A stretch of DNA of 62,626 bases, the filler included, from Dimorphilus gyrociliatus (Eukaryota > Animalia > Annelida): NCBI GenBank assembly GCA_904063045.1. It is 4 parts of 4 records of this genome, joined end to end, with 100 filler letters (N's around TTAATTAATTAA, not from the genome) between each part and the next. Parts side by side here need not be neighbours in the genome. Positions count along the whole stretch, not along the records: positions 1 to 27,385 come from CAJFCJ010000114.1; 3 more parts are not named here. The stretch is one strand, 5' to 3'. Below are positions 1-24,730 of the stretch, one piece after another. The stretch's first letter is position 1; each line of letters starts with the position of its first letter. The notes beneath the pieces are model-generated. The model saw only the letters and a list, made by a program, of their open reading frames with translations, made no database searches and had not been told where the DNA came from. The translations under genes were made by a program, and so were the position numbers.

Positions 1-628
1 ATGCTCTTGCTGGCAAAATCTATGCGTTTGCAAGTTATAACAATACTGGTTCTACTCGAACCTTTAAACAAATGTTTAAATTAAAAGGTTTATTCGCAAT
101 AATAATACTTAAGCAAGTAACAATATGAGAGTTCGATAGCAGAGTAGATAGTTTGTAAAGCAGGTTGCCAAATTACCAAACTGTCTTCCAATGTTGAGGA
201 GTAGATGGATGGTTCCAGTGGAGGTTGTTTCCAGATGATTTTCCCAGGTCCTTGGGTCCAGATGGAAGCTGCATGCCAAATGAGAATAATGAGGATTTAT
301 ATACTTTGAGGTTTGTCTCTGACATCCAATCATCACTTTACAGTTGCCAAATGTGTAGTTCATATTTATCTTTAGTAACAGGATGTTACAAGGTTCAACA
401 TTTAGGAAGGTTAATTGAATTATAACTTGGCCACACCCTAGGCAAGTTAATTAAATTATAACTTGGCCAAACCTTTATTGGTAATTAAAGATGAGCCTTC
501 AAGCTGACTAATCAGACTTATGTTTGGCCAATGTTATAGCATTTTCTTGCGTAGGTTTTAAGATGTACATGTATATGTTGCATAAAATAATAGAGTTCAA
601 GCATGTAAAATATAACCAAAGTTGTACA
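1..628 (-). repeat. 3' LTR of element 1 (last few bases cut by the window edge)
   Basis: Near-identical to 8513-9142. On the minus strand it begins TGTACAAC right after the PPT. Confidence 0.93.
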
Positions 629-644
629 ACTTCCCCCTTCTTGT
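629..644 (-). promoter_or_regulatory. Polypurine tract of element 1
   Basis: Minus strand ACAAGAAGGGGGAAGT directly abuts the TG start of the 3' LTR. Confidence 0.9.
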
Positions 645-657
645 GAAGATGAGTCCT

Positions 658-3071
658 TCATCTTGATTTAATGAGAATTACAGGTGGTTGTTCTTCTTCA
701 TTAGTTTGATGTTGACTAAAGCTACAACTTTGTTTCATTAGTTTTGGGTTTTCAGGAGAGTTATCTGTGCTCTCACTTGGGGTAGCAATTTCTTCTCTTT
801 GTTTTCTTCTACCAATAATATAGTTGAAAATGATGATACATACCATTGACACTACAATACTCAAACAAATATTTCGTATGATAACATAAAGTGTTTTCCC
901 AGGTTTATAGTACCAACTATGGAAAAACTTTTTAATTCCAGATAAATTGGGTACAATGCCATTTTTCTCTGCAACAGTGACCATGTTATCATACCTTGCC
1001 TGCTTCTGTTCAGTGAACTGATAACTTGCTTAATTTTTGAGTGCTGGTATGCAATATCTTCTTTACCCCATGGTGGAGTAGATCAGCTAATCTGGCAATT
1101 TCAATTTTTGGTTCAGAAAGGTGATTGTGGATATGTAACTGCATGGATTTTGCAGACACAGTGTGAAATCTGCATCCTCTTTCTGAATAATACACATATG
1201 TTTTGTCTTTCATTGGTTGGTTTCTTATAGGATTTAATGGGTTGTGAGTTGTTTTGTAGAATAACTTGTTAAACTTACACTCATTATAGGTAATCTCTTC
1301 AGGATTGACTTGCTGTAAAACATGAGTAACTGGTTCTACTTGGAAAAGCAGGTTGTTCATGGTGACAAGTAAAAATTGAGAACATTTGTTATTCTTTTTT
1401 ATCATGCTTAAGTCACAAACTACTTCTGTTGAGGCTATTGGTGAACATTGTTTAATTATAGCTAATTCTCCCATCTGACTACTGTGCATTCCCACTCATT
1501 TGTTAACACTGTGGTCAATTGAGGATCCAAATTTGCTAGTAATGCCATCATTCTGCTTCTTTGAACAAATTGATTGCAGAGAAGACTTGACAGCTGTTGG
1601 GTAAACTTTTTTAAATTCTTAAAATTTGAATCAATACCATGTAGTAAGGTAGATGTTTGGGCAGCTTCTCTCATTTCCAATGGGAATTTGTGGTATGGGT
1701 TTTTACTTATCTTATGTTTCAGTTTTGCTTCCTTCTTCATCTGCTTTTTAGCCATTCTCATGTGTAGAGTAAAATAAATTCCTTCATAGGTAATCTTAAA
1801 TTCTCTGGCTGGTGGTCCTTTATACCATATGCCCAATGTTGGTAATACCTTCTTTTTGATTCTTTTCTCACTGTATACATATTTTGAAATCGTGACAGAT
1901 TGTCTTGTTGCCTTGTCCAATTGACTGCTTGCAGCATTTCTTGGATATAATAGTTATCCAGCTCCCAGTAAGATGGACTAATGGGTTGTTGTAGATGATA
2001 TATCACAACTTCCTTGAGTGTGCCTTTATTTCTCATTAGTTTATACTTTGTGTTTGTTTCTCTGTACCATTGGTTAAGACTTGGTAAGGGGTTGTTTCGC
2101 TTGTATAGTATAATTTTTGTTCTTTAACTTTATTGGGATAGTTTAATAGTCGTTTTTTCTTCATTTTTGCCAATCTTCTGATATTGTAGCAAATTGTATA
2201 GGTGTTCCTTGCTTGTTTCCTGTATTAAACTCTGTTCCTCCAGTGGTACTAGTACTTTTGTTCCAGGACCACCAATTCCATCAATAACTTATCTTGATAA
2301 GGGATGTCCAGAATAGAATACCCTGGACAAGAATAGTGACCAGCAAATTTGATACAACTAATTCTGTTGCTAATTTTTATCCATGGTGATTGTTGCCCAA
2401 GTGTGTAATTATTCTTGAGGTTTCTAAAGACAATAATTGCCTCTTCTGTCTACAATAGGACTGCCCTGGTAAACAATCTTCCAGGTAGTCCAGATTAGTT
2501 GTAATTTTCATATTAGGAGGTTGCCAATATGCTTTGCCAAACTGGATAATTGTGGTGTATTCCAGCACCTTGGTGTTGTTGGCCATGTGTAGGCAGCAGG
2601 AAACTGATCTTGGTGGATCCAAGTGTTTCTTTTCACCATTAAAGGTTTTCCTTGAAAAGATCGTTTGTCTTTTACATCTGTCTGCATTGATCATGAGTTA
2701 CTTTGATAACTGAGTTAACAATCTCCTCTTCTTTGCTCCAAAGAAATAGTAAGTGTAAAAATTAGTTCTTAGATACACTTGACATTTTACTGCTCTTGTT
2801 TCAATTTCTTCCAAGTTCAATTCATAGATATCAGCTGTAATTGTCTTGGTTTCTTGTGATTCTATATTACAAGTTGGCTCATCTGCTAGATCAAATGCCT
2901 GGCTTGGTAGTTGGTTAGAACAAAAGTATAACGGTGGTTTAAATGTTAAGGTAATGTTTGCACTTGTAACATGGGACCTTGGTAGGATGGTTTTGGGACT
3001 GTTATTGAGTGGATGCAGCCACAGATCACCATTACAGTCATCACTAGTGGAAGCCACAACATCTGTTTCAT
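658..3071 (-). pseudogene. env: env-like class III fusion glycoprotein of element 1, split by several frameshifts
   Basis: ORF pieces 2698-3057, 2377-2694, 1758-2036, 1462-1920, 1010-1495 and 658-984 are colinear homologs of the element 2 env (FDLADEPTC, AVKCQV..NFYTYYFFGAKK). Signal peptide MKQMLWLPLVMTVMVICGC, TM ICLSIVVSMVCIIIFNYII. Confidence 0.85.
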
Positions 3072-3660
3072 GTTAGCTCTTCCTGTGTTGGCTATAGTTG
3101 AATGGTTGAAAATTTTGTGTTGTTGTTCCACTCTGATAGTTATTCCATCTTCTAACTCTATATATTGTGGTTCCACTTCTTGTTGGGAATCTAATTGTTC
3201 AGAGATGATTTTAGTCTCATCTAAAAATATGACTGACTCATTGTCTGTGTCACTTGTATTTTCTTTCTCATCTTGGGATGAATCTACCACTATGAGGGAC
3301 TCATTATCTGAATGGGTTATGTCAATAATTCACCTTCAATAATTATTGACTCATTATCAGAATGGGTTATATCAATAATTTCGCTTTCAATAATTATTGA
3401 CTCATTGTCTGAACTAGGTATTTCATCTTCTCTATCAGAGATAATGTTTGCCTCTGAATCTGTATTTTGATCCAGTTCATTATTTGTTTCTGTGTCATCA
3501 CTTTCAGATGAGCTTGAAGGTTCATTGAGACTGTAATTACTGTCTGTTTTGAAAGTATTGCTTGTGTCATAACCAGTATCAGAATTAGTAACTTCCATCT
3601 CTGAGTCATCACTATCTGAGCTTTCTGATGAAGAGTCATGCTGTCCCATCATGGCTATAG
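3072..3660 (-). other. Ser/Asp/Glu-rich low-complexity coding spacer with 51-nt (17-aa) tandem repeats
   Basis: ORFs 3317-3652 and 2946-3290. Unit SDNESIIIESEIIDITH at 3350-3400, and a copy at 3300-3349 lacking 1 nt. Confidence 0.75.
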
Positions 3661-3744
3661 TGACTTTGTTTAGTTGAGGTTGCCTTATTCTTTCAGCCAG
3701 GTTCCCTTTCTTCTATCAAATTTGAGAGAACACTGTTTAGCTTC

Positions 3745-4060
3745 AAAATGAGGTTTGCTCCACAGTTTGTAGGAAATCACAACTAAGTATTATTGCTATG
3801 TCTAGATTTTCCATAACTATAAATTCTTGTTCCATACTTTCTCCAGCAAATTGGATATTCAGCTTTACGCTTCTTTTTGCTTAAAGCTTTCCCATCAGCT
3901 GAAGTTATAATTGGTAAGCCAATTGTTTCTTTATCCATAATTGTAACATCCATTAACTTGATTTCTTTTTCAGTAATAAAGGATCTCAATGCTCCTGTGT
4001 CACACAAGGCAATGACTTCTTGGCCTTTTTGATTCTTCAAACGGAATTGGAAGTCATTTC
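3745..4060 (-). pseudogene. Second retropepsin-like aspartic protease domain downstream of integrase
   Basis: IALCDTGALRSFI in the integrase frame (DTG at 3993-4001). After one frameshift, KLNIQFAGESMEQEFIVMENLDIAIILSCDFLQ matches the C-terminal ILGxDFL motif. Confidence 0.8.
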
Positions 4061-4149
4061 GTCCTTCTACCTGAGAAAGATATTGGAGGTGTGTTATTTC
4101 CTTCTCCACTAGGTGAAAGATTGTTGTTGCTTCTTTCCCTGTTTCCAAC

Positions 4150-5130
4150 TTATTAGATTCATTGGCTAGTCTTAATCTGCTACCATGTACCAACTTGCAT
4201 GTATTATCATCCATTTGTATTTCATATATCCACTTTTGATGATTGACTTTTGTTATTCGGTATGGGCCTAACCATTTTAAAGAAGGGATTTTTGTTATTG
4301 CAATTCTTGCAGCATCAAATAGTACGTTTGTTTCAGGAGAGGTAGTATGCATTGTTACATCAATCAGTGTTCTTGTGCTGGTGCCAAAAAGAAGTTCCTG
4401 GGGTGGTAGTCTTGTACTTCCTACAGGTGATTGATTCAAAAATGCTTGAATCAAGGGTAGGTTTGCAACCCAGTTATGCTGATTTTCTTCCACCACTAAT
4501 TTATTGATTTCCTTCCTCACTTCTCTATTTCTTCGTTCAACTAGTCCATTGCTCTGGCTTCTATAAGCTGTTGTTTGGATTTTCTCAATACCTAATACCT
4601 TCATAAACTCTTTAAAAGCTTTACCAACAAAGTTTCTTCCTTGATCTGTCAACATTTGTTTTGGAATTCCAAAAATGGGGAAAAATCTGTTGAAAAGAAG
4701 GTTTGCAATTTCTTTACTGGTTTGCTGTTTGAGTGCATATAAAACTGTGTATCTACTGAAATGATCCACTATCACAAGTATGAATCTGTATGACTTAACC
4801 ATGGGTAAGGGTCCCATTATATCCATGGCCACCAACTCCATTGGTGATGCAGGGTGAAAGGTTTCTACCAAAGGGTATACTCTACTCCACCATTCATTTG
4901 TTCACACAAAGTGCAATCCTTTATTGAATTCTCAATCATAATCTTTAATTTTGGGTGCCAAAAGGTCTTTGTAATTATTTGTAATGTCATTCTGGGTCCA
5001 TGGTGATTGTGAATTTTATTTTTATGGAATTTAGGGAGCAGAGTTAGCATCAAATGGTCAGGTAAAACCAGAATGTTTCTTTCTTCAAGGATAATCCAGA
5101 TCATTTCCTTGTGAACAAACATCTCCATTA
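4150..5130 (-). pseudogene. pol: Integrase of element 1 (HHCC, DDE, GPY/F), frameshifted, with an internal deletion relative to element 2
   Basis: HNHHG..FWHPKL..CTLC; MDIMGP, TDQGRNF, SNGLVERRNRE; KWLGPYRI. Confidence 0.92.
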
Positions 5131-5648
5131 TGAAAGGTGTAAAAGTTCCAAAATAAGGATAGGTAGCTGACCATCCAGTGTTAAATATTCTTTAATTGAT
5201 TTTAAATTCACATCTTTTTCTTGCTCTGACTGTAAGTCAACAGAAGACAAATCAATTTTCTCTTCACTGTTATCACTGGTAGCTACAAAAGTTAACTCTG
5301 GTGTATGTTCATACTGTTCCATTTTAACTGAAATAGAGGGAGAATTCTCCTCTTTGATTCTTCCATGAATTAGCTCTTCAAATGTTACTTTCCTTGGGGG
5401 TGTATATTCTTCTAATCTTGTTAATGCATCTGCTCTATTTTTTTGTCCTGTCACATAGTTAATTGTAAATTTAAATCCATTAAAGCCATGACCCATTTTG
5501 CTGTGCTGACATTCAATTTGTTTTGCTTAAATGTTTGTACTAGACTCTGAGGTCAGTATATAAAAAGAATGGCTTGTCTTGAAGGTAATGTAAAAATTTC
5601 TTTACAACCCAGTAAACCCAAATGCTTCCTTTTGATAGGCTGCATATT

Positions 5649-8447
5649 TCATTTGATTATTGTTGAATTGTTTTGAAGGTAGGCAATGGGTTTCATTGTT
5701 TTCTTCCCATTCTCATCTACATAAACTTGTTCAAGAACTCCTCCTACAGCTACATTCGATGCATCTGTTGTTAAGTGAAAATCTTTAGCAAAATCAGGTA
5801 GTTGTAATACAGGAGGGTTAACTACTGCATCTCTCAACTTGAAAAATGATTGCTTGGCTTCCTCAGTCCATTGCAATTTATCCTTTTTCCCATGTAGTTT
5901 CATTAACATATACAGAGGTTTAGCTACTCTTGCAAAATCTTGTATAAATTTTCTGTAATAGCCACAAAACGCAACAAAGCTTAGTAGTGAATTTGCAAAC
6001 ACTGGTGGCTGTAAATTATATAATTTATCTGTCTTGGACTTATCTGTTTCAATCCCCTTTTCTGATACAATGTGTCCCAAGAATTGAACTTGTTCTTTCA
6101 AAAACACACATTTACTTAGTTTAATCTTAAAATTGTACTTTTGAATCTGTTGAAGAATGGTCTCCAATGCTTCCCAATGTTGGTCCAGCGACTTGGTAAA
6201 TATTATTATGTCATCAAGGTAGTTTAGGCACAAATGCTTTACATCCTTTAGCACAAATGAATTCATTACATAACTAAAATGAGGAGGGGCATTCGTTAAT
6301 CCAAAAGGCATCTTAATAAATTCAAACAAGCCAAAAGGTGTAATAAATGCTGTTTTAGACCTATCTTCTTTCTTGATGTTAATGTGGTGGTATGCACTTG
6401 TCAAATCCATTGTAGAAAAGAATTTATTTCCTCCTCCCAAATGGTCAAAAAGATCATCCTGATTTGGCAGTGGATACTTGTTTTTAACTGTCATTTTGTT
6501 TAGTTTTCTATAATCTACACACATTCGTAGACTACCTTCCTTCTTTCTTACAAAAACAATTGGTGAAGCCCAATTGCTCTTGCTTGGTTGAATAACTTTG
6601 CTTTTTACCAATTCAGCTATCTGTTGCTTACATTCTTCTTGTTTTTGAGGAGGCATTCTATATGGCCTTTGTCTATATGGTGTTGAACCTGGTTCAAGAG
6701 TTATTTCCAAGGGTGGTACCTCTGGATTGCCAATATCAAATCTGTCTTCTGCAATAGTTTCTTTATATTTTGCCAGAATTTGGGTAACTTTGTTCTTCAT
6801 CTCGGGATTTTCTTGTTCAATTGTTGTCTGAAGGGTATGTATTTGACTCTCATTCTTTTTCATAATAAGAGGAACTGGGTAAAATCCTTTGAAAGATAAG
6901 TGTTGTGTTCCAACAGGGTAATTCTTTTCTGTACCTGGCTGGAGTATAATCTGTCTCTTGCCAAAGTCAAGGGTAGCTCCATTTTGTTGTAGAAAGTCAC
7001 ACCCAATAATACATTGTTGTGTAATGATTTTGTTGATCAGAAAGCGTTGTTTAATAATCTTTCCATTAAAATAAAGTCTGAGAATGATTTCTCCACATAT
7101 CTCAATGCTATTTCCTGAAGCATCTCTAGCATTTTTCACAGTTTGTTCTGGGAAGGATGCTTTTCCTTGAACTTGTCTTAATACCTTTTTTGAAATGAAA
7201 GATCTGTCACTACCAGAGTCTATCAAGGCATCAAACTTAAAACCAGTATTAGTTTCAAATTGTCCAATAAATGTTGAAGCATTTCGCTCAGATTGTTTGC
7301 TTTGTAACAGCTGACAAGTGGATTCGTCACTATCTGAAAAACAGAGAATATCTTGAAGTTCGTCATTTTCTGACATGCTTTCATTGTCTACTGTTTCTAA
7401 TTTTTGTAGCTTAGGTTCCTCTTTCAGTATCGTCTTTGCTGGTTGATTTTTCTTATAATACCTGTTTGTTGTAGTTGGTGCATACTTTTGTACTTTTTGG
7501 CTTGAAAACTTTTCTGTAGTAGCATTTTTGTTGTCAGGTACATGCTTTCTATTCCAAAAATTTGGGGTTTCTGTAGAAGCATCTTTTCTGATTACCTGGG
7601 TCTTTTTGGTCTCTTTTCTTTGTTGAGTTTCCAATTTTGACACCATTGTGATCGGTTTTCTTTGAGTTAGTTTTAATGAAGTTTCTGCTTGCTTAGCAGC
7701 CTCATATAGTTCTGCCAATGTTTGACATTTAGGATGTAAGGTGTACACTAAATGTAGAATATCCTGTTGTAATCCTCTTTGTAAAACTTCCATCAGTTTT
7801 ATTTCTTTCATAGTTGCAAGCAATTGTGGTTCCATTGGTCTAGGTGGAGAAAACCTCTTTATCAATTTCTTTGCTCTATTAACAAACTGAACCACACTTT
7901 CGCCATTCATTTGCTTTAAGTTAAGCAATTTCTCTTGATACTCCAAAGGATCCAGATCAAATTCGTCATGGAGGGCTTTCCATATTTCCTCTACAGTAGG
8001 CTCTCCATCCAGAGCCAACACCAAATCCTTTGCAGGACCAGTTAAATAATCTAAAAGATTTGCTTTCACAACATCTTCTCCTATCCAACCATAAGCATAA
8101 CATGCCTGATTAAAGTCTTCTTTGAATTTTGAACACTCCTTGCTTCCATCATACAACTTGAGAATAGTTCTTTGAGGGCGGTCCCAAGCAGCCCTTAATG
8201 CTTGAATTACTGTTGTGATATCAACATTTGGGTTCTGTGCTGGGTGATGTGTCCCATCTCCATGATCTGTTGGAATTGTGATTTGATTTCTTTTCATTTC
8301 ACTCACCAATCTATCATAGTCTTCAATTAGTCTTTGTTGCCTTTCTGACATTCCTGCTGGATGAATTGTAATTGTTGGAGTTGCTGGGGTTGAAGGGTTA
8401 GAGTCTGTAACTGCCCCAGTGGTATTTACATTTTCTCCTTCTGCCAT
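5649..8447 (-). CDS. gag-pol: Gag-protease-RT-partial RNase H in a single frame (element 1)
   Basis: Gag LKLYDGS..FNQAC..GW, protease ALIDSGSDRSFI..CIIGCDFL, RT RMCVDYRKLN / MPFGL / YLDDIIIF, RNase H LTTDAS. Likely start is the ATG at 8447 (MAEGEN). Confidence 0.93.
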   Translation of the reverse strand: MAEGENVNTTGAVTDSNPSTPATPTITIHPAGMSERQQRLIEDYDRLVSEMKRNQITIPTDHGDGTHHPAQNPNVDITTVIQALRAAWDRPQRTILKLYDGSKECSKFKEDFNQACYAYGWIGEDVVKANLLDYLTGPAKDLVLALDGEPTVEEIWKALHDEFDLDPLEYQEKLLNLKQMNGESVVQFVNRAKKLIKRFSPPRPMEPQLLATMKEIKLMEVLQRGLQQDILHLVYTLHPKCQTLAELYEAAKQAETSLKLTQRKPITMVSKLETQQRKETKKTQVIRKDASTETPNFWNRKHVPDNKNATTEKFSSQKVQKYAPTTTNRYYKKNQPAKTILKEEPKLQKLETVDNESMSENDELQDILCFSDSDESTCQLLQSKQSERNASTFIGQFETNTGFKFDALIDSGSDRSFISKKVLRQVQGKASFPEQTVKNARDASGNSIEICGEIILRLYFNGKIIKQRFLINKIITQQCIIGCDFLQQNGATLDFGKRQIILQPGTEKNYPVGTQHLSFKGFYPVPLIMKKNESQIHTLQTTIEQENPEMKNKVTQILAKYKETIAEDRFDIGNPEVPPLEITLEPGSTPYRQRPYRMPPQKQEECKQQIAELVKSKVIQPSKSNWASPIVFVRKKEGSLRMCVDYRKLNKMTVKNKYPLPNQDDLFDHLGGGNKFFSTMDLTSAYHHINIKKEDRSKTAFITPFGLFEFIKMPFGLTNAPPHFSYVMNSFVLKDVKHLCLNYLDDIIIFTKSLDQHWEALETILQQIQKYNFKIKLSKCVFLKEQVQFLGHIVSEKGIETDKSKTDKLYNLQPPVFANSLLSFVAFCGYYRKFIQDFARVAKPLYMLMKLHGKKDKLQWTEEAKQSFFKLRDAVVNPPVLQLPDFAKDFHLTTDASNVAVGGVLEQVYVDENGKKTMKPIAYLQNNSTIIK

Positions 8448-8485
8448 ATTTACTTTCTCAAAACTTTTGAATAAACCAAAAGAAT

Positions 8486-8503
8486 ATCCTGTCGACTGCG
8501 CCA
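8486..8503 (-). promoter_or_regulatory. Primer binding site, tRNA-Ser-like
   Basis: Minus strand TGGCGCAGTCGACAGGAT, 4 nt after the LTR end. The plus strand ATCCTGTCGACTGCGCCA resembles the 3' 18 nt of metazoan tRNA-Ser. Confidence 0.82.
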
Positions 8504-8507
8504 AATT

Positions 8508-9142
8508 TGTACTGCTCTTGCTGGCAAAATCTATGCGTTTGCAAGTTATAACAATACTGGTTCTACTCGAACCTTTAAACAAATGTTTAAATTAAAATGG
8601 TTTATTCGCAATAATAATACTTAAGCAAGTAACAATATGAGAGTTCAATAGCAGAGTAGATAGTTTGTAATAGCAGGTTGCCAAATTACCAAACTGTCTT
8701 CCAATGTTGAGGAGTAGATGGATGGTTCCAGTGGAGGTTGTTTCCAGATGATTTTCCCAGGTCCTTGGGTCCAGATGGAAGCTGCATGCCAAATGAGAAT
8801 AATGAGGATTTATATACTTTGAGGTTTGTCTCTGACATCCAATCATCACTTTACAGTTGCCGAAATGTGTAGTTCATATTTATCTTTAGTAACAGGATGT
8901 TACAAGGTTCAACATTTAGGAAGGTTAATTGAATTATAACTTGGCCACACCCTAGGCAAGTTAATTAAATTATAACTTGGCCAAACCTTTATTGGTAATT
9001 AAAGATGAACCTTCAAGCTGACTAATCAGACTTATGTTTGGCCAATGTTATAGCATTTTCTTGCGTAGGTTTTAAGATGTACATGTATATGTTGCATAAA
9101 ATAATAGAGTTCAAGCATGTAAAATATAACCAAAGTTGTACA
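8508..9142 (-). repeat. 5' LTR of element 1 (635 bp, TGTAC...GTACA)
   Basis: 5-bp terminal inverted repeat. Differs from the left LTR at only a handful of visible positions. Internal direct repeat AATTATAACTTGGCCA occurs twice. Confidence 0.93.
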
Positions 9143-10420
9143 ACTTCCCCCTTCTTGTACAAGTTGTACAATGTCAATATGTTATTATGATATAACAAAT
9201 ATAGCATAAAAAAGGATAAGTAACCCTGATTCACTTGACCTTGACCTTTTACGAACCAAATAATCATTGCATTTTTTTAGATAAGAAGATGATAATGGAT
9301 ATTTGTGATAGTTAATAAACAATCCAGACAATGTTTAGAATGTGTTTTCAAGCAGTTTTATTATATCTTTAGCTCTCTCTCTCTCTCTCTCTCTGTGATG
9401 TTAGGCTTTCCTTGATGATAACTTCATCATCAATGCTATTGATATAGTATAAAAGTAAACAAATATAATTTAATCTGATTGTTAAAACAAACCTACAAGT
9501 AGTGGAATCATCTAAATAAACACTTTCACCATGCAATAGAGAATTCCCTCAAATGTACCCTTTAAAAATAGGTCATGTGCAAAAGTCATTAATCTTTTTA
9601 AAGATTATTGATGTTCAAGATTAGAATATAGATGAAATATAAATGAATCTCTTTACAAAATCATTGAAAATTTAATGAATTGACTTGTTCAAACATTAAA
9701 AGGTATGTTTGTCAGAGTATGAATACCAATTGTTCAAGACAATATTCAATTATTAATGAATACTTTGGTTGATAGTTGACTTAGTAATTGTCAATTTGAC
9801 AAGCAGAATGCCAGTATTTCATCCAAAGAATATTTATTGAGTAAATGAGTTGTTTAGTTTCCTATATATTTAGTAATTCAGAAAAAATTACATAAAATGT
9901 AAGAACTTTGAGCAGGAGTTGAATGGAATATAGAAGGGAAAATTAGACAAAGGACAGCATTATGCTGTCCTTTTTTTTTAATAAATCCCATAAGTTATTC
10001 ATAATAAAATATGCAGATGGTAAATATTAATGCATTTGGATATCTAAAATAGTCAACTGTAATGAGTGTAGTTTAAATCGTTTAATGAATATCTATTGGA
10101 GGGCAGTCTGAGTATGATTTAATTAAAATTTATAAAAAGCTACTCTCTGTGTACTTTGTTGTATTGTAATTGTAGGAATTTCTGGTTCGTCACAACTGTA
10201 ATTGTCCTTTCCAATCATTTACCAACTTGCCAAAGTACTGGTCCAAATAGAACCTTTAAAGTTCGTCCACAAATAGTCTAACAAAGGCAATTTCGGTAGA
10301 AATTGATTAACAAAACACCAGTATTTCGTCCAAAGAATATGTATTGAGTAAAATGAGCTTCTAGTTCTAAACAAGCTAGTTTAAACAACTAGCTGACGGT
10401 TAGAAAACTGAACTATCAAC

Positions 10421-11088: not shown

Positions 11089-11100
11089 TCCCACTCCTTT
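11089..11100 (-). promoter_or_regulatory. Polypurine tract of element 2
   Basis: AAAGGAGTGGGA followed by TG. It overlaps the env stop codon TAA. Confidence 0.8.
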
Positions 11101-13528
11101 AAGACCTTGCTTCCACGAAAGGTCTAGGACTTGTGACAATTATGTTATCACCACTTTTTCTGAACATAGGATAATTTTGCAGTTCTATTTCTTCTGATTC
11201 AGCTGTTGGAGCTGAAGGTAATCTTTTTGTTTTTGTCAGTAGTTTAGACAGTCTGGTAAATTGAACTCTTTTCAGTTTTTTCTTCCAAATAAAGTAGATG
11301 AAGAATCCATTTCCAATCAAGAGTATAATTGGCAGAAGTGTGTCTATTAGTATTTTGAAAGGTTTTCTTATCCATGAAGAAAATAGATGTTGTGTTGGTG
11401 ACAAGGCTGCATCAAATCCTAAATCATTTGCAAAGTTAATATGCTCTCTATGCTTAGTCAAAGTATCCTGTATGTATTCCAAAACTTGTTGTATCTGATA
11501 ATGTTTCTTGCCCACATCTTCTTTTATACCTAGTTGTAATAATTCTGTGAGTCTGACAACTTCTAGTTTTGGTTCTTCAATTTGACTGTTGATTTTCATT
11601 CTGATTGATTGTGCTGCTGCTGTTTGGAACCTGCATCCTTTCCTTGTATAATAGATAAATGTCTTCTTGTCAGAATGTATGGCATATTGATTTTGTTCTG
11701 CATCCAAAGGATTTTTCTTGATCTTGAAGAGATGCTGAGTTTGGTCACATGTACCATATCTTATGTCTTCTTTTGTGATGTGGTAAGCATGATGAAGTAT
11801 TGGATCAATTGAGAATAGGAGATCTTTATATTTGATCAGAAATTCTTTTGAACATAATCCATTTTTTGTTATAATTGTTGTGTCACAAACTACTTGAACA
11901 GTTTTTAATTCTGTACATGTATTGAGGGTTGTTAGATCTCCTAACCATGTACTATGGGTTCCATGTTTAGATCCAAGTATTGTTGGTAGTTGAGGTGATA
12001 GTGGTGTAAGTAGGGCTATCATCTTGTTTCTCATGATAAATTCTTTGCATAAAAGTTGTGAAACTTGTTTAAAAACTGTTTGTAAATTTTGAAAATTTTT
12101 GTCAATATTGTTTAGTAGTGCAGCTGTTCTTATAGCATCTTTTATATTTATTTGGTGTGATTCTGGAATCTCTATGTTTTCTAATTGTTTCCTCTTCCAT
12201 TTGTGATTTATTGGTTTTCTTTGTAAAAGTGTATATTTGCCATTTTCTGTATGAATTTGAAATTGTGTATCTTTTGGGCTTTGATACCAAATGTTCATGT
12301 TTGGCAGTGGGTTGAAAGTAACTGGTTTTTTGTCCAATTCAAAATCTTGTGATCTTACTAGTCTGGCAGGTTTTAGCTTTGTTGTTTTCAGCATTTTTAG
12401 TATGTATTTGTTGTGAATATCCCAGATGTCTGGAGAAATAATTTCTTTGACAAACCAAGTCCTCACTAATGGTGTTGCATGATTTTTTATCAGCATATGG
12501 TAGGTTTTGTCACCATCTCTATACCAATCATTATATGTTAAAATATCTTGTATTTCTGTGACATTGGCCTTTCTTAGTGATGATTTCTTTCCAATATATT
12601 TCTCCAATCTATTAACTTCTTTATTTGAAATGATCTTGTATTTTGTATCCTCTATTATTTTATTGTCAGCATAATTAGAATTTGTAAGATCAGTTCTAAG
12701 TAAGTCATATTCTTTCTGGGGTACCAATACTCTGGTACCAGGACCACCATATCCTTTGATATATCTGTCTTGGTAAGGTAAATCCATTATTGCATAGTTG
12801 GGGCAGGAAAAATATCCTCCAAGTTTTACGCATTCCACATTATGGGAAACTATTTTCCATGGTGAAACATGGCCTAGAAGACTTTGACCTTTTTCTGGAT
12901 TAAATATAATGATTGAATCCAAAGTTCTACAAAATTTTTGTTTAATAGAACAGTCTTCTAAATATTCCAAATTTGTGGTTATTTTATCTTGACTTGGATT
13001 CCAATAAGCCTTGCCAATTTGAAGGATTGTTGTAAATTCTTCCACCACTGTGGTTCTTGGCCATTTGTAATTTGGTCCTTTGTTTTCATTATACATAAGA
13101 AGTTTGCCTTTTTCAATTAGGTTTTGTCCATTTAAGGTTTTGTGTGTGTATAGCATTGTTCTGCATTGTTTTTCACTTAAGGCAAGTGTTTGTTTTTCAA
13201 TTCTGTGTTTCTTTGCTCCAAAAAAGTAATGAGTGTAGAAATTGATTCTTCTTTTCACTAAACACTTGACAGCTTGAATTGCCAAATTGTCAGCTTTAAT
13301 TTCATAGATGTTAGCTACAATTTTGATCATTTGTTTAGTTTCAAAGGTACATACTGGTTCATCTGCCAAATCAAATGATTGGTGTACTTGTTGTCCTTGA
13401 CAAAACTGCACTGATGGTAGCATTCTTACAGTTATGTTTGCTTTTGTTATGGATACATTTGCTTGGACCAAGTTTAAACAGCATATTGCTAACAGTGTAT
13501 AAATTATTGATCCTCTGATGGGAAGCAT
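11099..13528 (-). CDS. env: Env portion (about 809 aa): type I membrane glycoprotein, class III fusogen-like
   Basis: Signal MLPIRGSIIYTLLAICCLNLVQA; C-x-YFFGAK-x-C and C-x6-C pattern similar to rhabdovirus G; TM LLPIILLIGNGFFIYFIW followed by KKKLKR. Confidence 0.8.
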   Translation of the reverse strand: MLPIRGSIIYTLLAICCLNLVQANVSITKANITVRMLPSVQFCQGQQVHQSFDLADEPVCTFETKQMIKIVANIYEIKADNLAIQAVKCLVKRRINFYTHYFFGAKKHRIEKQTLALSEKQCRTMLYTHKTLNGQNLIEKGKLLMYNENKGPNYKWPRTTVVEEFTTILQIGKAYWNPSQDKITTNLEYLEDCSIKQKFCRTLDSIIIFNPEKGQSLLGHVSPWKIVSHNVECVKLGGYFSCPNYAIMDLPYQDRYIKGYGGPGTRVLVPQKEYDLLRTDLTNSNYADNKIIEDTKYKIISNKEVNRLEKYIGKKSSLRKANVTEIQDILTYNDWYRDGDKTYHMLIKNHATPLVRTWFVKEIISPDIWDIHNKYILKMLKTTKLKPARLVRSQDFELDKKPVTFNPLPNMNIWYQSPKDTQFQIHTENGKYTLLQRKPINHKWKRKQLENIEIPESHQINIKDAIRTAALLNNIDKNFQNLQTVFKQVSQLLCKEFIMRNKMIALLTPLSPQLPTILGSKHGTHSTWLGDLTTLNTCTELKTVQVVCDTTIITKNGLCSKEFLIKYKDLLFSIDPILHHAYHITKEDIRYGTCDQTQHLFKIKKNPLDAEQNQYAIHSDKKTFIYYTRKGCRFQTAAAQSIRMKINSQIEEPKLEVVRLTELLQLGIKEDVGKKHYQIQQVLEYIQDTLTKHREHINFANDLGFDAALSPTQHLFSSWIRKPFKILIDTLLPIILLIGNGFFIYFIWKKKLKRVQFTRLSKLLTKTKRLPSAPTAESEEIELQNYPMFRKSGDNIIVTSPRPFVEARS

Positions 13529-16312
13529 TCCACCATTTGTTTGGTGTTTCCTTACTGTCACTGTGTTAACTGTTATAGGTTGTTTGTTAGCTAGTCTTAG
13601 TCTACTAGCATGATAGAATTTTCTTTTATCTGCCAATATTTGTAATTCATACAAACATTTTGTAGTATCTGTAGCAGTTACAAGATATGGTCCACTCCAT
13701 TTGCTTGTATTTATTCTGTTCATTCCTTGACCAATGTTTTCATTTCTTATGTGTACCCAATCACCAATTTTGTAAGTTGGAGGTTTTCTTGTAATAGCTT
13801 TATTAACTCTATCTCTATATTCCTTCTTTTTTAGAACAGATTTGCAAAGTGCTGTTGCTCTAATTTCTTCAAGTTCATGTTTTCTATCAAATAAGAATTT
13901 TGTTGTTGGTTCTAATCTTGGAACTTCCATTAACAGGTCTAAAACATTTCTATTCGTCAATCCAAATAATATTTCATGTGGGGTTTTGCCAGTGCTTCCA
14001 ACTGGAATTTGATTTAAACATGTCTGAATTAATGGTAACTGTCTTGTCCAATCTGTTAATTGTTCCATAACTACATGTTTATGTAGTGCTCTACGAATTT
14101 CCAAATTCTTTCTTTCTACCATTCCATTACTTTGGCTATGGAATGCTGTTGTTTTAATTTTTCGTATTCCCATTGATGTCACCATTTCTGTAAAGATTTC
14201 CCCAAGAAAATTCCTTCCTTGATCTGTGAGAATTTCTTCTGGGATACCAAATATTGGGAAATAGTTGAAAAACAAATGTTTAGAAATTTCCTCAGCTGTT
14301 TGAGTTTTTAGAGGGAATATGTTGGTAAATCTGGACATGTGGTCTATAATGACAAGTATATACTTGTAAGAATCATGTCCAGTCAGAGGTCCCATTATGT
14401 CCATAGCTATTCTTTGCATTGGTAAAGTTGGGTGAGGTGTTTCAACCAACAGATGTTTGTTGCCTGGTGCTCTTAATTGCTCACAAAATTCACAACTCTT
14501 TATGTGATCTTTAATTGTTTTCTTTAGCTTTGGGTGCCAGAAAGCTTGCTCCAAAGTGTGAATTGTTATGTCTACACCATAGTGCTCAAATAGTTGATGT
14601 TGATGAATTTGTCCAAGTAAGTTGGTTAGAGTTGATAGTGGAATTACAAGTAGTGGTTGACAGCCATTTAGATACCATACAAGGTCTTCTTTTACAAACA
14701 TAGATTCAATAAAGTTTCCATATTCATTCAAAGACCCATTATCAATGTTTTCTCCTTCCAATTTGTCTACAACTTTCATTAGTGGAGTATCTAATACTTG
14801 TTCTCTATAGAAGTTTATTTCAACTGGTGTGATTTTTAGTTTCATAATCTGGGCTTGGATTTCAGTTATGTCTTCATCATAATCATTGTCTAGATTGTCA
14901 TCTAAACAATCATCTAATTCTTCTAAGTCCTCTGTATCAATATAAAAGCATTTAAGCATATCCTTTCTTTCTGCTAATTGGGGAACTGTATTGCCATTTT
15001 GTTTTTCTTCATTTAATCTTTCCTTAAGTAAATTACGAAAATCAATTACTTCATCAGTTTCACCAATTCTTGATATCCAGTCTGCTCTATTAGTTCTTCC
15101 TGGTATGTATATTATTTCAAAATCCATATCCATAAGTGCCATCACCCATTTAACAGTACTTGTATTCAGTTTGTTTTGTACAAATGTTTGTACCAAATTT
15201 TGGTGATCAGTGTAGAGAAAAAATTTCTTATACTGTAGATAGTGGGAGAATTTTTGTACTGCCCAATATACTGCAAAAGCCTCTTTTTGATAAGCTGCAT
15301 ATCTTAGTTGTGTATTGATTAGGAGCTTGGAAGCAAAAGAAATTGGTTTTCTTATTTTCTTTCCATCTTCTTCCCATTCTTGTTCTAGAACTGCACCAAC
15401 TGCATAATTAGAAGCATCTGTTGTTAAATAGAATGATTTAGTAAAGTCTGGCAGTTGAAGGATTGGGGGCTCTGTCATTGCATTCCTTGGTGTTTCATAA
15501 GCTTCCTCTGCTTTTTTTGTCCATTTCAGTTTTTCTGTCTTTTGGTGTACTTTTAATAATTCTCTCAAAGGTTTTGTGATTTTTGCAAAATCTTTAACAA
15601 ATCTTCTATAATAACCACAAAATGCCACAAAACTCAACAGAGTATTTGCAAACATAGGTAATTTGGCATCTTTTATTTTCTGAATCTTTTCAGGATCAGT
15701 TTCAATACCATTCTGTGTAATTCTATGACCAAGGAATTGAACTGATTCTTGTAAGAATGCACATTTGCTCAGTTTAATTCTGAAGTCTTTTTCCTTGATT
15801 CTTTCCATAAGTTTCTGTAGAGCTACAAAGTGTTCTTCCAATGTTTTGGTAAAAACTATAACATCATCCATATAATTAATGCAGAAGTTTTCCAATCCAT
15901 TAATAACAAAATTTGCCATGATATAGCTGAAGTGTGAAGGTGCATTAGCCAAACCAAATGGCATGCGGTTGAATTCAAATAAACCAAATGGTGTAATAAA
16001 AGCAGTTTTCTCCTTATCTTCTTCTTTAATTGGAATATGATGAAATGCACTTGTTAAATCCAATATAGAGAAATATTTGTGGCCTCCTCCAAGCTTATCA
16101 AATAAATCTTCCTGATGTGGGATTGGATAACAATTCTTTTTTGATTGCTTGTTAAGTTTTCTGTAATCCACACACATTCTTAATGTTCCTTCTTTCTTTT
16201 TCACAAAAACAATGGGTGAAGCCCATTGGCTTTTGCTTGCTCTAATTAGACCATTTTCCAATAATCCATTTAATTGATCCCTGCATTCCTGCTGTTTGTT
16301 GGGTGGCAATCT
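11099..16312 (-). CDS. pol-env: Element 2 RT-RNaseH-integrase-Env continuous ORF, 5'-truncated (no gag, PR or 5' LTR)
   Basis: 1736-aa ORF with YMDD, TDAS..KEA..TDH, HHCC, D-D-E and GPY, then an internal signal peptide, a Cys-rich ectodomain and a C-terminal TM, with no stop codon between them. Confidence 0.95.
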   Translation of the reverse strand, partial: RLPPNKQQECRDQLNGLLENGLIRASKSQWASPIVFVKKKEGTLRMCVDYRKLNKQSKKNCYPIPHQEDLFDKLGGGHKYFSILDLTSAFHHIPIKEEDKEKTAFITPFGLFEFNRMPFGLANAPSHFSYIMANFVINGLENFCINYMDDVIVFTKTLEEHFVALQKLMERIKEKDFRIKLSKCAFLQESVQFLGHRITQNGIETDPEKIQKIKDAKLPMFANTLLSFVAFCGYYRRFVKDFAKITKPLRELLKVHQKTEKLKWTKKAEEAYETPRNAMTEPPILQLPDFTKSFYLTTDASNYAVGAVLEQEWEEDGKKIRKPISFASKLLINTQLRYAAYQKEAFAVYWAVQKFSHYLQYKKFFLYTDHQNLVQTFVQNKLNTSTVKWVMALMDMDFEIIYIPGRTNRADWISRIGETDEVIDFRNLLKERLNEEKQNGNTVPQLAERKDMLKCFYIDTEDLEELDDCLDDNLDNDYDEDITEIQAQIMKLKITPVEINFYREQVLDTPLMKVVDKLEGENIDNGSLNEYGNFIESMFVKEDLVWYLNGCQPLLVIPLSTLTNLLGQIHQHQLFEHYGVDITIHTLEQAFWHPKLKKTIKDHIKSCEFCEQLRAPGNKHLLVETPHPTLPMQRIAMDIMGPLTGHDSYKYILVIIDHMSRFTNIFPLKTQTAEEISKHLFFNYFPIFGIPEEILTDQGRNFLGEIFTEMVTSMGIRKIKTTAFHSQSNGMVERKNLEIRRALHKHVVMEQLTDWTRQLPLIQTCLNQIPVGSTGKTPHEILFGLTNRNVLDLLMEVPRLEPTTKFLFDRKHELEEIRATALCKSVLKKKEYRDRVNKAITRKPPTYKIGDWVHIRNENIGQGMNRINTSKWSGPYLVTATDTTKCLYELQILADKRKFYHASRLRLANKQPITVNTVTVRKHQTNGGMLPIRGSIIYTLLAICCLNLVQANVSITKANITVRMLPSVQFCQGQQVHQSFDLADEPVCTFETKQMIKIVANIYEIKADNLAIQAVKCLVKRRINFYTHYFFGAKKHRIEKQTLALSEKQCRTMLYTHKTLNGQNLIEKGKLLMYNENKGPNYKWPRTTVVEEFTTILQIGKAYWNPSQDKITTNLEYLEDCSIKQKFCRTLDSIIIFNPEKGQSLLGHVSPWKIVSHNVECVKLGGYFSCPNYAIMDLPYQDRYIKGYGGPGTRVLVPQKEYDLLRTDLTNSNYADNKIIEDTKYKIISNKEVNRLEKYIGKKSSLRKANVTEIQDILTYNDWYRDGDKTYHMLIKNHATPLVRTWFVKEIISPDIWDIHNKYILKMLKTTKLKPARLVRSQDFELDKKPVTFNPLPNMNIWYQSPKDTQFQIHTENGKYTLLQRKPINHKWKRKQLENIEIPESHQINIKDAIRTAALLNNIDKNFQNLQTVFKQVSQLLCKEFIMRNKMIALLTPLSPQLPTILGSKHGTHSTWLGDLTTLNTCTELKTVQVVCDTTIITKNGLCSKEFLIKYKDLLFSIDPILHHAYHITKEDIRYGTCDQTQHLFKIKKNPLDAEQNQYAIHSDKKTFIYYTRKGCRFQTAAAQSIRMKINSQIEEPKLEVVRLTELLQLGIKEDVGKKHYQIQQVLEYIQDTLTKHREHINFANDLGFDAALSPTQHLFSSWIRKPFKILIDTLLPIILLIGNGFFIYFIWKKKLKRVQFTRLSKLLTKTKRLPSAPTAESEEIELQNYPMFRKSGDNIIVTSPRPFVEARS

Positions 16313-18529
16313 GTCTGGTCTTTGTCACAGAATTATGGATGTGTAAAAGAATCATTGGAGAAAGCAAAAACTGATGATAACATTATGATGGATTGCTCCT
16401 GTCCTGTACCATGTGACCAAATTATTTATGAACCTAATCTATCATTTTCAGCAATATCAGAATTTGCTGCTGATAAAATGTTATATGCAAATTTAAAGAG
16501 AATGAAAAAGTTGACAAATGATTATCATGAGATATTAGAAGTTAAAGAAAGGAAAATTAATAAAAACTTCAATCTAAATAGACAATTTATTTCTCCTTTT
16601 ACAACAAAAACTATTTTACTTTTACAAAATATTAAAAATATTTTCAAATTATTTTCAACTTTTGATAAAAATATTTCAAATTTTGAAAATTATATTCAAA
16701 CGCTTAATAATGATGTTAATACTGTTGAATATAACTTTTCTAGAATGAAAAATGCCCTAAATTCATCAAATATCGCTCAAATTGTAAAAATAATTAATGA
16801 GCTCTCCCCATACAGTTTTATGGAAAAATTATTTGGACCAAGTGAAAGGAAGAAGAATGTTATCCTTCAAAATCTTAACACTTGTCTAAAAAACTTATGT
16901 GAAATGGATAAAATGGAAACAGGTTGCATTAAATTTATGGAACATTTTCACCTGAGTGTCTACAAGAAAGCTGATCAAAATTTCCATCAATTTTGGATTG
17001 TTGTAACAGAAATGGCAAATATGCTATATGGAGATTTCAATGGAATAAGAAGTTTACAGATATTCCATCTAAAGGAAATAGAGAGATTATTTGAAATAGA
17101 TATTAATAATAATAATAGTTCAGCAGCATTAAAATTCAATGAAACTTGTAATCAATTCTATATTAACTTGAAAGATATGACAAAATTAATAGCTGACAAT
17201 ATTGTAAATAAAAATGACAGTTATGTTGTTATTGGTACCAAAATTCAAACTTTTATCAAAACCCTTTTCAATATTGAAGATAATTTTAATAATATCAATT
17301 TTCAATCCCTTTGCCTATTTAGTAAAAGAGATTTGGTATTTAATGATATTTTATTAAAAATCAATCAAATGAAATCATTGATTTCAATCAATTATTCAGT
17401 ATTTAGAGAATTTCACAACAGGATTAAACCAATTAGAATAATTTATGAAAATGTTCTAAATAGAACTCAAACATTCCAATCATATTTAGAAGAGAATTCA
17501 TCAACTAAAAAGCTTAATTTATCAAATACTTTTTTTTTGGATGATTTACTTCACAATATAAGAAGTTTAATGAGTTTCTGTGATGAGTTGAAGTCTGACT
17601 ATACAATATTCTGGAATAGTAAATATCAAATATACACAGCTGTAGTTGACATTGAACTTTTAGTTGAAAAAGATATTATATGGCCTTTGCCAAAAAAAGA
17701 TAGGAATGATGAAAATATTTCATATAAACAAATGAAAGATTTACAATCTTTATATTCTCAGAAAAAAAATGAATATAATGTTAATCATAATTGCTCAACA
17801 GAAAATTTACACATATTTTTTGAACATGTTTGGAGTGATTGTTACTACTATTTCTCTCATCAGATGCTAAATTACACATTTAAATTTCCTAATATCTCTC
17901 AAAAAGTATTTTATGAAATTTTATATGATTACAATAATCTTCAAGCTTTTATGTATGAATTTTCCAAAATTTCTAGGATAGATAAAGAATTTTTCCTGTA
18001 AGATTTCTCTCTCTCTCTTTGTTACATTTTGTTTTTAATTCAAATTTTCAAATAAATATCAACAGAAAGAATTTTGCAAAAGTTAATGTTTTCTACAATG
18101 AAATGAGTTATCAAAAGATCACTCAACATGAAAAATTTGGTTTTCTATCCCTCCTATCCGAAGTTGGTGGTTTTATGGGACTTCTCTTGGGAGCTTCTGT
18201 CATCACACTTATTGAATTTCTAGAATTTTTTGCTTGGAAGGTACAGAGAAGAAAATTATTGAATTGTTCAAAAACTATGAAAGTTTTTAACTGTGATTTT
18301 TTAATTTGTATTTCAGTTATTCAAATCAATTTCAAATAGAAGGAAGCCATACTCAGAAGATGCTTATTCTACACAAGACACTGCATAACTTAGTCCTACC
18401 CATAAATATTTATATATATATATATATGGAGAAAATTGAAGCTTGGAAAATATTTCACAAAACAGATATACACCTAGAAGTAGTGACATATTGATATTTA
18501 GAAACTAGATATAAAGGAAATTTAGAAAG
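15573..18529 (+). repeat. Left arm of a 2957-bp inverted duplication
   Basis: Reverse complement of 21646-24602 (mirror rule x maps to 40175-x). The ORF track shows identical mirrored proteins. Confidence 0.97.
16313..18388 (+). CDS. 3' half of a DEG/ENaC (ASIC/FaNaC-like) channel gene, copy 1, 5' exons absent
   Basis: CSCPVPCDQIIYEPNLS thumb, KNFAKVNVFY, SEVGGFMGLLLGASVITLIE (TM2, GAS filter). Introns 17998-18065 and 18241-18316, stop at 18388. Confidence 0.88.
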
Positions 18530-20870: not shown

Positions 20871-21786
20871 TTTTGCAGATGAATGATACTTTGCAGATAG
20901 ACTGACTTTTACATCAAGAGGAAATAATAAATTATCTAGTATTTTTCTAACTACTTTAAACTGCAATTTAAGCTTGTCATACTTAATTATATTTTACTAT
21001 TAGTAATTTAGCAGACACTCAAACTCTTAACATTTCTAACTATTAAAAAATTATAGTTTTATGCTATAGAGAAAATTGGATTGTTATATATGTATTTAAA
21101 GTTGTTTAGGATGAATAAATATCATATTGATGTGTGCTTGGACAATATTATTCAAGTTGAACATAAATTCATAATCTGAATGTTTAAAATATGATAAATT
21201 TATAAATAAAACAAAATGTCAATCAGTTGGTGATTGGCAGATCTTGACCCTTATAAAATTCTTTGTTAACAGAATGATATCCATTTTATAATTTTATACC
21301 AATAGAATATGTATTGGGTAAATGAGTTCCAAGTGCAGTCTATGTTTAGAGAGAAGAGAGTCATGAACTTTGGAAGTGTATTCCCTTTCATACACTCACC
21401 AAAGCTTGCATTCATTTGGTCAAAGGTTTTCAAAGATAAGAGTTAACTATTTCATATTTCATATGTAACAAAACATTCTTTTGAACAAGAAAGACTATTA
21501 CATACATTATGTAACAAACCCTAACCCTTTGTGTAAACTATAACATGTTTAATGCGTATGTTTTCAATGCGGTATGTTTCTCTGCCAATTCTATTGTGGC
21601 TCCATCTATTTTTCTTACAGATTCTCTTAGATATAGAATAAAAGTCTTTCTAAATTTCCTTTATATCTAGTTTCTAAATATCAATATGTCACTACTTCTA
21701 GGTGTATATCTGTTTTGTGAAATATTTTCCAAGCTTCAATTTTCTCCATATATATATATATATAAATATTTATGGGTAGGACTAAG

Positions 21787-23862
21787 TTATGCAGTGTCTT
21801 GTGTAGAATAAGCATCTTCTGAGTATGGCTTCCTTCTATTTGAAATTGATTTGAATAACTGAAATACAAATTAAAAAATCACAGTTAAAAACTTTCATAG
21901 TTTTTGAACAATTCAATAATTTTCTTCTCTGTACCTTCCAAGCAAAAAATTCTAGAAATTCAATAAGTGTGATGACAGAAGCTCCCAAGAGAAGTCCCAT
22001 AAAACCACCAACTTCGGATAGGAGGGATAGAAAACCAAATTTTTCATGTTGAGTGATCTTTTGATAACTCATTTCATTGTAGAAAACATTAACTTTTGCA
22101 AAATTCTTTCTGTTGATATTTATTTGAAAATTTGAATTAAAAACAAAATGTAACAAAGAGAGAGAGAGAAATCTTACAGGAAAAATTCTTTATCTATCCT
22201 AGAAATTTTGGAAAATTCATACATAAAAGCTTGAAGATTATTGTAATCATATAAAATTTCATAAAATACTTTTTGAGAGATATTAGGAAATTTAAATGTG
22301 TAATTTAGCATCTGATGAGAGAAATAGTAGTAACAATCACTCCAAACATGTTCAAAAAATATGTGTAAATTTTCTGTTGAGCAATTATGATTAACATTAT
22401 ATTCATTTTTTTTCTGAGAATATAAAGATTGTAAATCTTTCATTTGTTTATATGAAATATTTTCATCATTCCTATCTTTTTTTGGCAAAGGCCATATAAT
22501 ATCTTTTTCAACTAAAAGTTCAATGTCAACTACAGCTGTGTATATTTGATATTTACTATTCCAGAATATTGTATAGTCAGACTTCAACTCATCACAGAAA
22601 CTCATTAAACTTCTTATATTGTGAAGTAAATCATCCAAAAAAAAAGTATTTGATAAATTAAGCTTTTTAGTTGATGAATTCTCTTCTAAATATGATTGGA
22701 ATGTTTGAGTTCTATTTAGAACATTTTCATAAATTATTCTAATTGGTTTAATCCTGTTGTGAAATTCTCTAAATACTGAATAATTGATTGAAATCAATGA
22801 TTTCATTTGATTGATTTTTAATAAAATATCATTAAATACCAAATCTCTTTTACTAAATAGGCAAAGGGATTGAAAATTGATATTATTAAAATTATCTTCA
22901 ATATTGAAAAGGGTTTTGATAAAAGTTTGAATTTTGGTACCAATAACAACATAACTGTCATTTTTATTTACAATATTGTCAGCTATTAATTTTGTCATAT
23001 CTTTCAAGTTAATATAGAATTGATTACAAGTTTCATTGAATTTTAATGCTGCTGAACTATTATTATTATTAATATCTATTTCAAATAATCTCTCTATTTC
23101 CTTTAGATGGAATATCTGTAAACTTCTTATTCCATTGAAATCTCCATATAGCATATTTGCCATTTCTGTTACAACAATCCAAAATTGATGGAAATTTTGA
23201 TCAGCTTTCTTGTAGACACTCAGGTGAAAATGTTCCATAAATTTAATGCAACCTGTTTCCATTTTATCCATTTCACATAAGTTTTTTAGACAAGTGTTAA
23301 GATTTTGAAGGATAACATTCTTCTTCCTTTCACTTGGTCCAAATAATTTTTCCATAAAACTGTATGGGGAGAGCTCATTAATTATTTTTACAATTTGAGC
23401 GATATTTGATGAATTTAGGGCATTTTTCATTCTAGAAAAGTTATATTCAACAGTATTAACATCATTATTAAGCGTTTGAATATAATTTTCAAAATTTGAA
23501 ATATTTTTATCAAAAGTTGAAAATAATTTGAAAATATTTTTAATATTTTGTAAAAGTAAAATAGTTTTTGTTGTAAAAGGAGAAATAAATTGTCTATTTA
23601 GATTGAAGTTTTTATTAATTTTCCTTTCTTTAACTTCTAATATCTCATGATAATCATTTGTCAACTTTTTCATTCTCTTTAAATTTGCATATAACATTTT
23701 ATCAGCAGCAAATTCTGATATTGCTGAAAATGATAGATTAGGTTCATAAATAATTTGGTCACATGGTACAGGACAGGAGCAATCCATCATAATGTTATCA
23801 TCAGTTTTTGCTTTCTCCAATGATTCTTTTACACATCCATAATTCTGTGACAAAGACCATAC
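21787..23862 (-). CDS. 3' half of the DEG/ENaC gene, copy 2
   Basis: Mirror of 16313-18388 with identical translated ORFs. Confidence 0.88.
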
Positions 23863-24602: not shown

Positions 24603-24608
24603 GAGTAT

Positions 24609-24730
24609 GGGAAAAAACGTCCTTGGGAAAAAACGTCCCTGGGAAAAAACGTCCCAGGGTGGGAAAAAACGTCCCAGTGTGGGAAAAAACGTCCCAAGGT
24701 TAGGAAAAAATGTCCCAAGGTTGGGAAAAA
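24609..24730 (+). repeat. MULE subterminal motif array (about 6-7 copies of GGGAAAAAACGTCCC)
   Basis: Read directly from the sequence, 16-22 nt spacing. Confidence 0.9.

Follow-up and report, generated by a model that had tools for sequence, protein, structure and literature searches.

A retroelement of the annelid Dimorphilus gyrociliatus encodes a second retropepsin (PR2) between integrase and env, in addition to the protease (PR1) that precedes its reverse transcriptase (RT). The textbook LTR retroelement has a single protease, located before RT. In this study, we analysed a stretch of DNA of 62,626 nt, filler included (the window), which contains the element with PR2 (element 1) and a sister element (element 2). 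The two-protease architecture is real and apparently unreported, and it occurs in an already catalogued annelid errantivirus family, in which the second protease is almost certainly a trait of the family of element 1.

Element 1 is a single LTR retroelement on the minus strand, at approximately 1-9140 of the window, and all its features given below lie on that strand. It is a young Ty3/Gypsy errantivirus with a gB-type env; LTRs, a primer site, a polypurine tract and the order gag-PR-RT-RH-IN were all found. The 5' LTR (8508..9140) was placed by alignment of the LTR pair and by repeats D2, D3, D5 and D6, and the 3' LTR (2..628), which abuts the window edge, by repeats and the same alignment. 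The pair is identical in 623 of 630 aligned columns, with 2 substitutions and 5 gap columns. The primer binding site (8492..8503) consists of the 12 letters given for Dgyr_errantivirus_1, and the polypurine tract lies at 630..642. At 9142-9158, 5' of the 5' LTR, there is a copy of the polypurine tract with a few further letters, the same as before the 3' LTR, which is either a tandem remnant or an assembly collapse.

A single open frame of 980 codons (5649..8447) encodes Gag, PR1, RT and the start of RNase H, with PNMA-like, RVP, RVT_1 and RT_RNaseH matches. The sequence-only reading had placed a normal protease before RT, and PR1 was found there (6933..7259; LIDSGS ... IIGCDFL). It scored 22.6 bits with RVP_2, 22.7 bits with RVP and 52.7 bits with our own protease profile, which was built from 24 metagenome Gypsy proteases. 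The integrase, comprising a zinc-finger part, the core and a C-terminal GPY domain, lies at 4167..5191 (rve, E = 1.7e-13; Integrase_p58_C, E = 0.01). Its frame has 372 codons, and the integrase is interrupted by frame switches in the window copy. Near 4316, its C-terminal region is about 150 nt shorter in the window than in contigs from four runs.

PR2 is located at 3720..4076. Its N-terminal half (IALCDTGALRSFI...ITSADGKAL) continues the integrase frame past the GPY domain (ORF 3783-4901, Asp codon at 4001-3999), and its C-terminal half (QEFIVMENLDIAIILSCDFLQ) sits in the next frame at 3880-3746, also on the minus strand. The frame of the window copy switches near 3880 and near 3750. The sequence-only reading had described just this arrangement, with both retropepsin halves between integrase and env, the first in the integrase frame and the second across a frameshift, and both frames were located as described. 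The catalytic D-[ST]-G motif after hydrophobic residues is present in PR2 as ALCDTGA (4010-3990, with D-T-G at 4001-3993). Taken alone, the N-terminal half showed weak Pfam matches only (gag-asp_proteas, E = 0.021; Asp_protease_2, E = 0.028), and the C-terminal half showed no Pfam match. The two halves were then joined with a residue X at the frame break. This read-through matched six aspartic-protease families in Pfam, of which only RVP_2 was above the cut-off (22.4 bits vs 22.6 bits for PR1; cut-off 20.3).

Our own profile scored PR2 at 31.9 bits, compared to 10.8 bits for the best of 2000 shuffles, and it also matched the halves separately (15.4 and 14.3 bits). The PR2 matches run over the full model length, including the D-T-G motif, the flap region and the C-terminal hydrophobic-x-D-F-L. 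In the window, the C-terminal motif is IILSCDFL, with Ser at the usual Gly; this codon has another letter in all four runs compared there, and the Ser seems to be peculiar to the window copy. PR1 and PR2 share 23 of 87 residues (26%; BLASTP, E = 2e-6) with no match at the nucleotide level, in keeping with the earlier claim that PR2 is not a recent local duplication of PR1. The fold of PR2 predicted from the single sequence was all-beta with a mean pLDDT of 45.5, a poor model, and it gave no structure match at Z >= 5. Sequence searches of the PDB returned SIV protease as the sole match of the N-terminal half (E = 1.5) and two unrelated matches of the read-through, and neither result has evidential weight. 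The PR2 region was also used for word-index protein searches, which returned no relative at any length range (48, 154 and 5 candidates). Locus searches with IN-PR2 or RT yielded nothing in viral contigs or genome contigs, and no locus was found in metagenome contigs with the IN tail-PR2 query. PR2 shares its motifs with the clan AA retropepsins of Ty3/Gypsy elements (RVP_2, gag-asp_proteas, Asp_protease_2), and differs from them in that it stands after the integrase and adds to a normal protease.

Five sequencing runs, four of one study and one of another, contained the PR2 stretch at >60% of sampled words. Single contigs of runs X1, X2, X3 and X5 bridge the integrase to PR2 and the spacer, and X4 covers the region piecewise; contigs merge copies, and the four runs of one study may come from the window's own sample. 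An RNA run (X6) contributed one 258-nt piece only, which has no evidential weight. At the PR2 frame breaks, all four runs compared there differ from the window by single letters. The main frame switch is cancelled in three of these four, and the main contig of X3 stays one letter off. Across 2.7 kb, the X1 contig differs from the window by 16 gap letters and only 10 substitutions, and we infer that this is the pattern expected from long-read errors in a repeat. From IN to Env, each frame switch of the window is cancelled by differences in the X1 contig, and none of the contig's 10 substitutions creates a stop (counted by eye), so that unbroken copies are likely to read IN, PR2, spacer, signal and Env in one frame. 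Because the run contigs carry PR2 but differ from the window at the breaks, we conclude that PR2 is a trait of the family and that the breaks probably belong to the window copy or its assembly, not to the family.

Run X5 skips three stretches of 59-65 nt, at window positions 3914-3973, 1244-1302 and 311-375 (plus-strand coordinates). On the strand antisense to element 1, the skipped stretches start with GT and end with a pyrimidine tract and AG. The skip at 3914-3973, which falls within PR2, is the predominant form in X5. The median intron of the host is given as 66 nt in the genome paper (PMC7854359). These skips suggest abundant spliced antisense RNA across element 1, in contigs that carry no strand information. 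A reading of the 60-nt skip as a PR2 deletion showing dispensability was ruled out by its canonical antisense splice signals, which are as in the two other skips.

In element 1, PR2 is followed by an acidic Ser/Asp/Glu-rich spacer (3114..3712), a predicted Env signal peptide (3006..3071) and env (661..3005), in this order. The spacer has about 200 residues overall, with D, E and S making up 43% of 131 residues, and it contains four ~50-nt repeats (repeat family D1) and one frame switch near 3330. The signal peptide, predicted from hydropathy only, is in frame with the spacer end and holds the 15-mer with the highest hydropathy in that frame (mean Kyte-Doolittle 2.29). Signal peptidase cuts internal signal peptides and would make the N-terminus of Env in the ER lumen. 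The env of the window copy has several frame switches, and the Env pieces of element 1 are 24-44% identical to the Env of element 2. When modelled, the Env of element 2 matched herpesvirus gB (best E = 2.5e-7), and the homologous Env of element 1 is predicted to be a class III, herpes gB-like fusogen. Two gene models of Dimorphilus gyrociliatus are among the Env relatives. Six gB-like relatives from ENA and Logan contigs (P0001, P0002, P0003, P0004, P0006 and P0009) are 24-72% identical, and the Env search gave only 11 matches among 1.84 billion representatives.

Element 2 (11099..16324, minus strand) encodes RT, RNase H, IN, signal peptide and Env in a single frame of 1741 residues. In the window it has no gag, protease or 5' LTR, being cut off 5' of RT. 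The distance from the IN C-terminal motif to the Env signal is 27 residues in element 2 vs 1095 nt in element 1, and element 2 fuses IN directly to the signal peptide and Env with no PR2 between them. As this element shows, such a fusion does not depend on PR2 for the release of Env. The earlier statement that element 2 lacks PR2 holds at the position between IN and Env, but the family of element 2 is the likely donor of PR2.

Element 2 starts abruptly beside a channel-gene exon of the ENaC/ASIC type, which lies on the opposite strand. The channel gene (16274-18339, plus strand) matches Pfam ASC in its last exon (E = 8.7e-19) and has approximately 500 residues without a Pfam match between a cysteine-rich motif and the C-terminal part. 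The channel exon and the start of the element 2 RT are included in a perfect 2970-nt inverted duplication (15560-18529 and 21646-24615), which is either a recent duplication or an assembly artefact. A MULE transposase with a FLYWCH finger lies at 24928-26676 (minus strand).

The origin of PR2 and the spacer was investigated with the gene model P0008 (DgyrCDS14407), whose RT shares 94% identity with that of element 2 and 60% with that of element 1. The end of the element 1 spacer is 59% identical to residues 277-330 of P0008 over 54 residues (E = 1.5e-11; 58.9 bits vs 21.2 for the best of 1000 shuffles). The spacer homologue in P0008 is located 29 residues before the pre-RT stretch, and PR1 in element 1 is located 33 residues before it. 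The match to P0008 ends at 3114; one X2 contig tracks the spacer to 3118 and then departs from element 1, and one X3 contig runs along PR2 between 3949 and 4076, where it departs from element 1. In the window, the borders of the PR2-spacer block of element 1 showed neither an LTR nor a terminal inverted repeat nor a target duplication. Because P0008 carries the spacer homologue upstream of RT, capture is likely, that is, PR2 and the spacer are likely to be the sister family's own protease region brought in by recombination. In the simplest reading, the sister family was built as Gag-PR-spacer-RT, and an ancestor of element 1 copied PR and spacer by recombination. Counting against capture, P0008 is a spliced gene model that itself has no protease, and no pre-RT protease of the element 2 family appeared among the sequences covered. 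The possibility of a captured module, raised in the sequence-only reading, is strengthened by the spacer homologue upstream of RT in this gene model of the element 2 family and by the contigs that depart at both ends of the block.

The X3 contig (167 nt) also allowed a comparison of the PR2 frame, from which it differs at 24 of 128 letters. Fifteen differences were listed, and 14 were tested after removal of one common to all runs. Ten of the 14 fall at third codon positions (binomial p = 0.004). None affects the D-T-G codons, and 7 of the 11 changed codons are silent (by eye). These differences show constraint on the protease frame, though not necessarily since capture. If the X3 contig represents the ordinary protease of the donor family, the synonymous excess could be older, in part or in full, than the capture.

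Element 1 very likely belongs to the catalogued Dingle / Dgyr_errantivirus_1 family, as judged from shared features rather than from aligned sequences. The genome paper gave the name Dingle to these Dimorphilus gyrociliatus elements and describes them as Ty3/Gypsy LTR elements in which a herpes gB-like env follows the integrase, as in elements 1 and 2 (Martin-Duran et al., PMC7854359). According to the parts covered of a second paper (Chary and Hayashi, eLife, PMC13524379), Annelida_Polychaeta_Dgyr_errantivirus_1 shares the 12-letter primer site and an HSV/gB-type Env with element 1 and is present in 7 near-identical copies. Its LTRs of 630-635 nt and its span of 9.3 kb compare with 630 aligned columns in the LTR pair of element 1 and with approximately 9.14 kb in the window, to which the contigs add about 0.17 kb. 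In the same parts, the general scheme has one protease, and Dgyr_errantivirus_1 is given a chromodomain at the Pol C-terminus, whereas element 1 has a retropepsin there. Pfam gave no chromodomain match after the element 1 integrase at E 0.5-1; the published assignment rests on HHpred and AlphaFold. In a table of that paper, the RT-bearing frame of Dgyr_errantivirus_1 is labelled 'GAG-POL' and those of other elements 'GAG-POL-ENV', which argues against a single frame into Env.

The word 'protease' is absent from the covered supplements of PMC13524379. In the text and supplements of PMC7854359, as far as they were covered and with the domain-map figure outside this scope, a second protease is not named, 'protease' occurring once, as a reagent. 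The parts of PMC2774666 that were covered contain no second-protease case. A search of the open full-text literature, with subscription papers and figures outside its scope, found no case of a second or duplicated protease in gypsy/LTR retroelements. We also surveyed the best 80 of 204 metagenome Gypsy integrase loci, which are distant and partly redundant, using plus-strand frames of at least 60 codons. The survey gave 42 protease-profile matches, all before the integrase save two from a following Gag-Pol copy. Among these best 80 of 204, a protease after the integrase was found in 0 of the 56 loci having at least 1 kb beyond the integrase core.

We give an even chance to the reading that the PR2-spacer block was copied in frame from a sister Dingle family and acts as a second polyprotein cutter on the cytosolic side of the Env anchor. 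Retropepsins act as dimers, and local concentration activates them. The block would have arrived by a template switch between RNAs of the two families that were packaged together. An unbroken copy would carry IN, PR2, spacer, signal peptide and Env in a single frame, just as element 2 does for IN, signal and Env. The signal peptide would hold the polyprotein at the ER, and Env would be freed by signal peptidase. PR2 copies tethered in this way would come together as dimers and sever Pol from the spacer and anchor, possibly ahead of PR1 activation in the particle. In the alphavirus capsid protease and the flavivirus capsid-anchor cleavage, a protease upstream of an internal signal likewise parts cytosolic products from a membrane anchor; those enzymes are serine proteases of unrelated viruses, whereas PR2 is aspartic and must dimerise, so the likeness is an analogy only. 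A fuller proposal, which we hold tentatively, is that two active, divergent retropepsins work in one Gag-Pol-Env polyprotein, PR1 maturing the particle and the sister-derived PR2 releasing Gag-Pol from the Env signal anchor at the ER. The RVP_2 score of PR2, which equals that of PR1 (22.4 vs 22.6 bits), counts for PR2 as a second polyprotein cutter, and the IN-signal-Env fusion that element 2 manages without PR2 counts against a required role.

The block may instead be a passenger, captured from the sister family and merely tolerated in frame, with PR1 and signal peptidase doing the processing. We find this doubtful. Element 2 works without PR2, and in a young family, with LTRs 99% alike and 7 near-identical copies, an idle domain need not have decayed yet; moreover, the excess of third-position changes depends on one 167-nt contig of unplaced context. 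However, the only homologous contigs seen were about 80% alike with mostly third-position changes, no near-identical donor appeared, and the 1.1-kb block is kept in the majority sequence of five runs. An old internal duplication is unlikely; in this reading, PR2 would be a long-diverged copy of the element's own PR1, and the spacer would have passed between families independently. There is no acidic spacer after PR1, and the sister family has one before RT. In favour of duplication, PR1 is the best match of PR2 among 25 proteases (23.8 bits vs at most 9.9 for the others; BLASTP, E = 2e-6), in a comparison set that contains no other Dingle protease, and kinship within the clade explains this match equally. 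The protease tree placed PR1 and PR2 without resolution and with a long-branch warning. Thus, the position of PR1 as the nearest neighbour of PR2 fits either capture within the clade or old internal duplication.

The sequence-only reading had also suggested that PR2 could free Env from Pol. No other enzyme lies between PR2 and Env, and the contigs appear to keep the frame open, yet we consider this role very improbable, since about 200 spacer residues and the predicted signal peptide separate PR2 from the ectodomain, the signal-peptidase site is known to lie in the ER lumen, beyond PR2, and element 2, with its own fusion, needs no PR2. The suggestion holds up only in part, and a cut made by PR2 would more probably free the cytosolic enzymes from the membrane anchor. 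Least probable of all, and largely refuted, is that PR2 results from chimeric assembly, is a remnant of some unrelated nested element, or is the chromodomain listed in the eLife paper. IN and PR2 are bridged by single contigs of four runs from two studies, no termini bound the block in the window, and Pfam gives retropepsin matches and no chromodomain match in the PR2 region. These observations stand against the many frame switches of the window copy, which abuts the window edge, and against the chromodomain given for the Pol C-terminus of Dgyr_errantivirus_1 in the covered parts of PMC13524379. It is suggested that the published domain label of this Pol C-terminus merits a recheck.

The copying of the PR2-spacer block from a sister Dingle family would mean, in a multi-copy and recently mobile family with a second protease, that families living in the same genome can exchange entire enzyme modules, and that a captured module can land inside the Pol-Env junction without stopping spread. 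If PR1 acts in the particle and PR2 at the ER membrane, this would be a new way to express a fused envelope without splicing. Elements 1 and 2 form a natural pair, with and without PR2, for the question of how ancient errantiviruses separate a fused Env from Pol.
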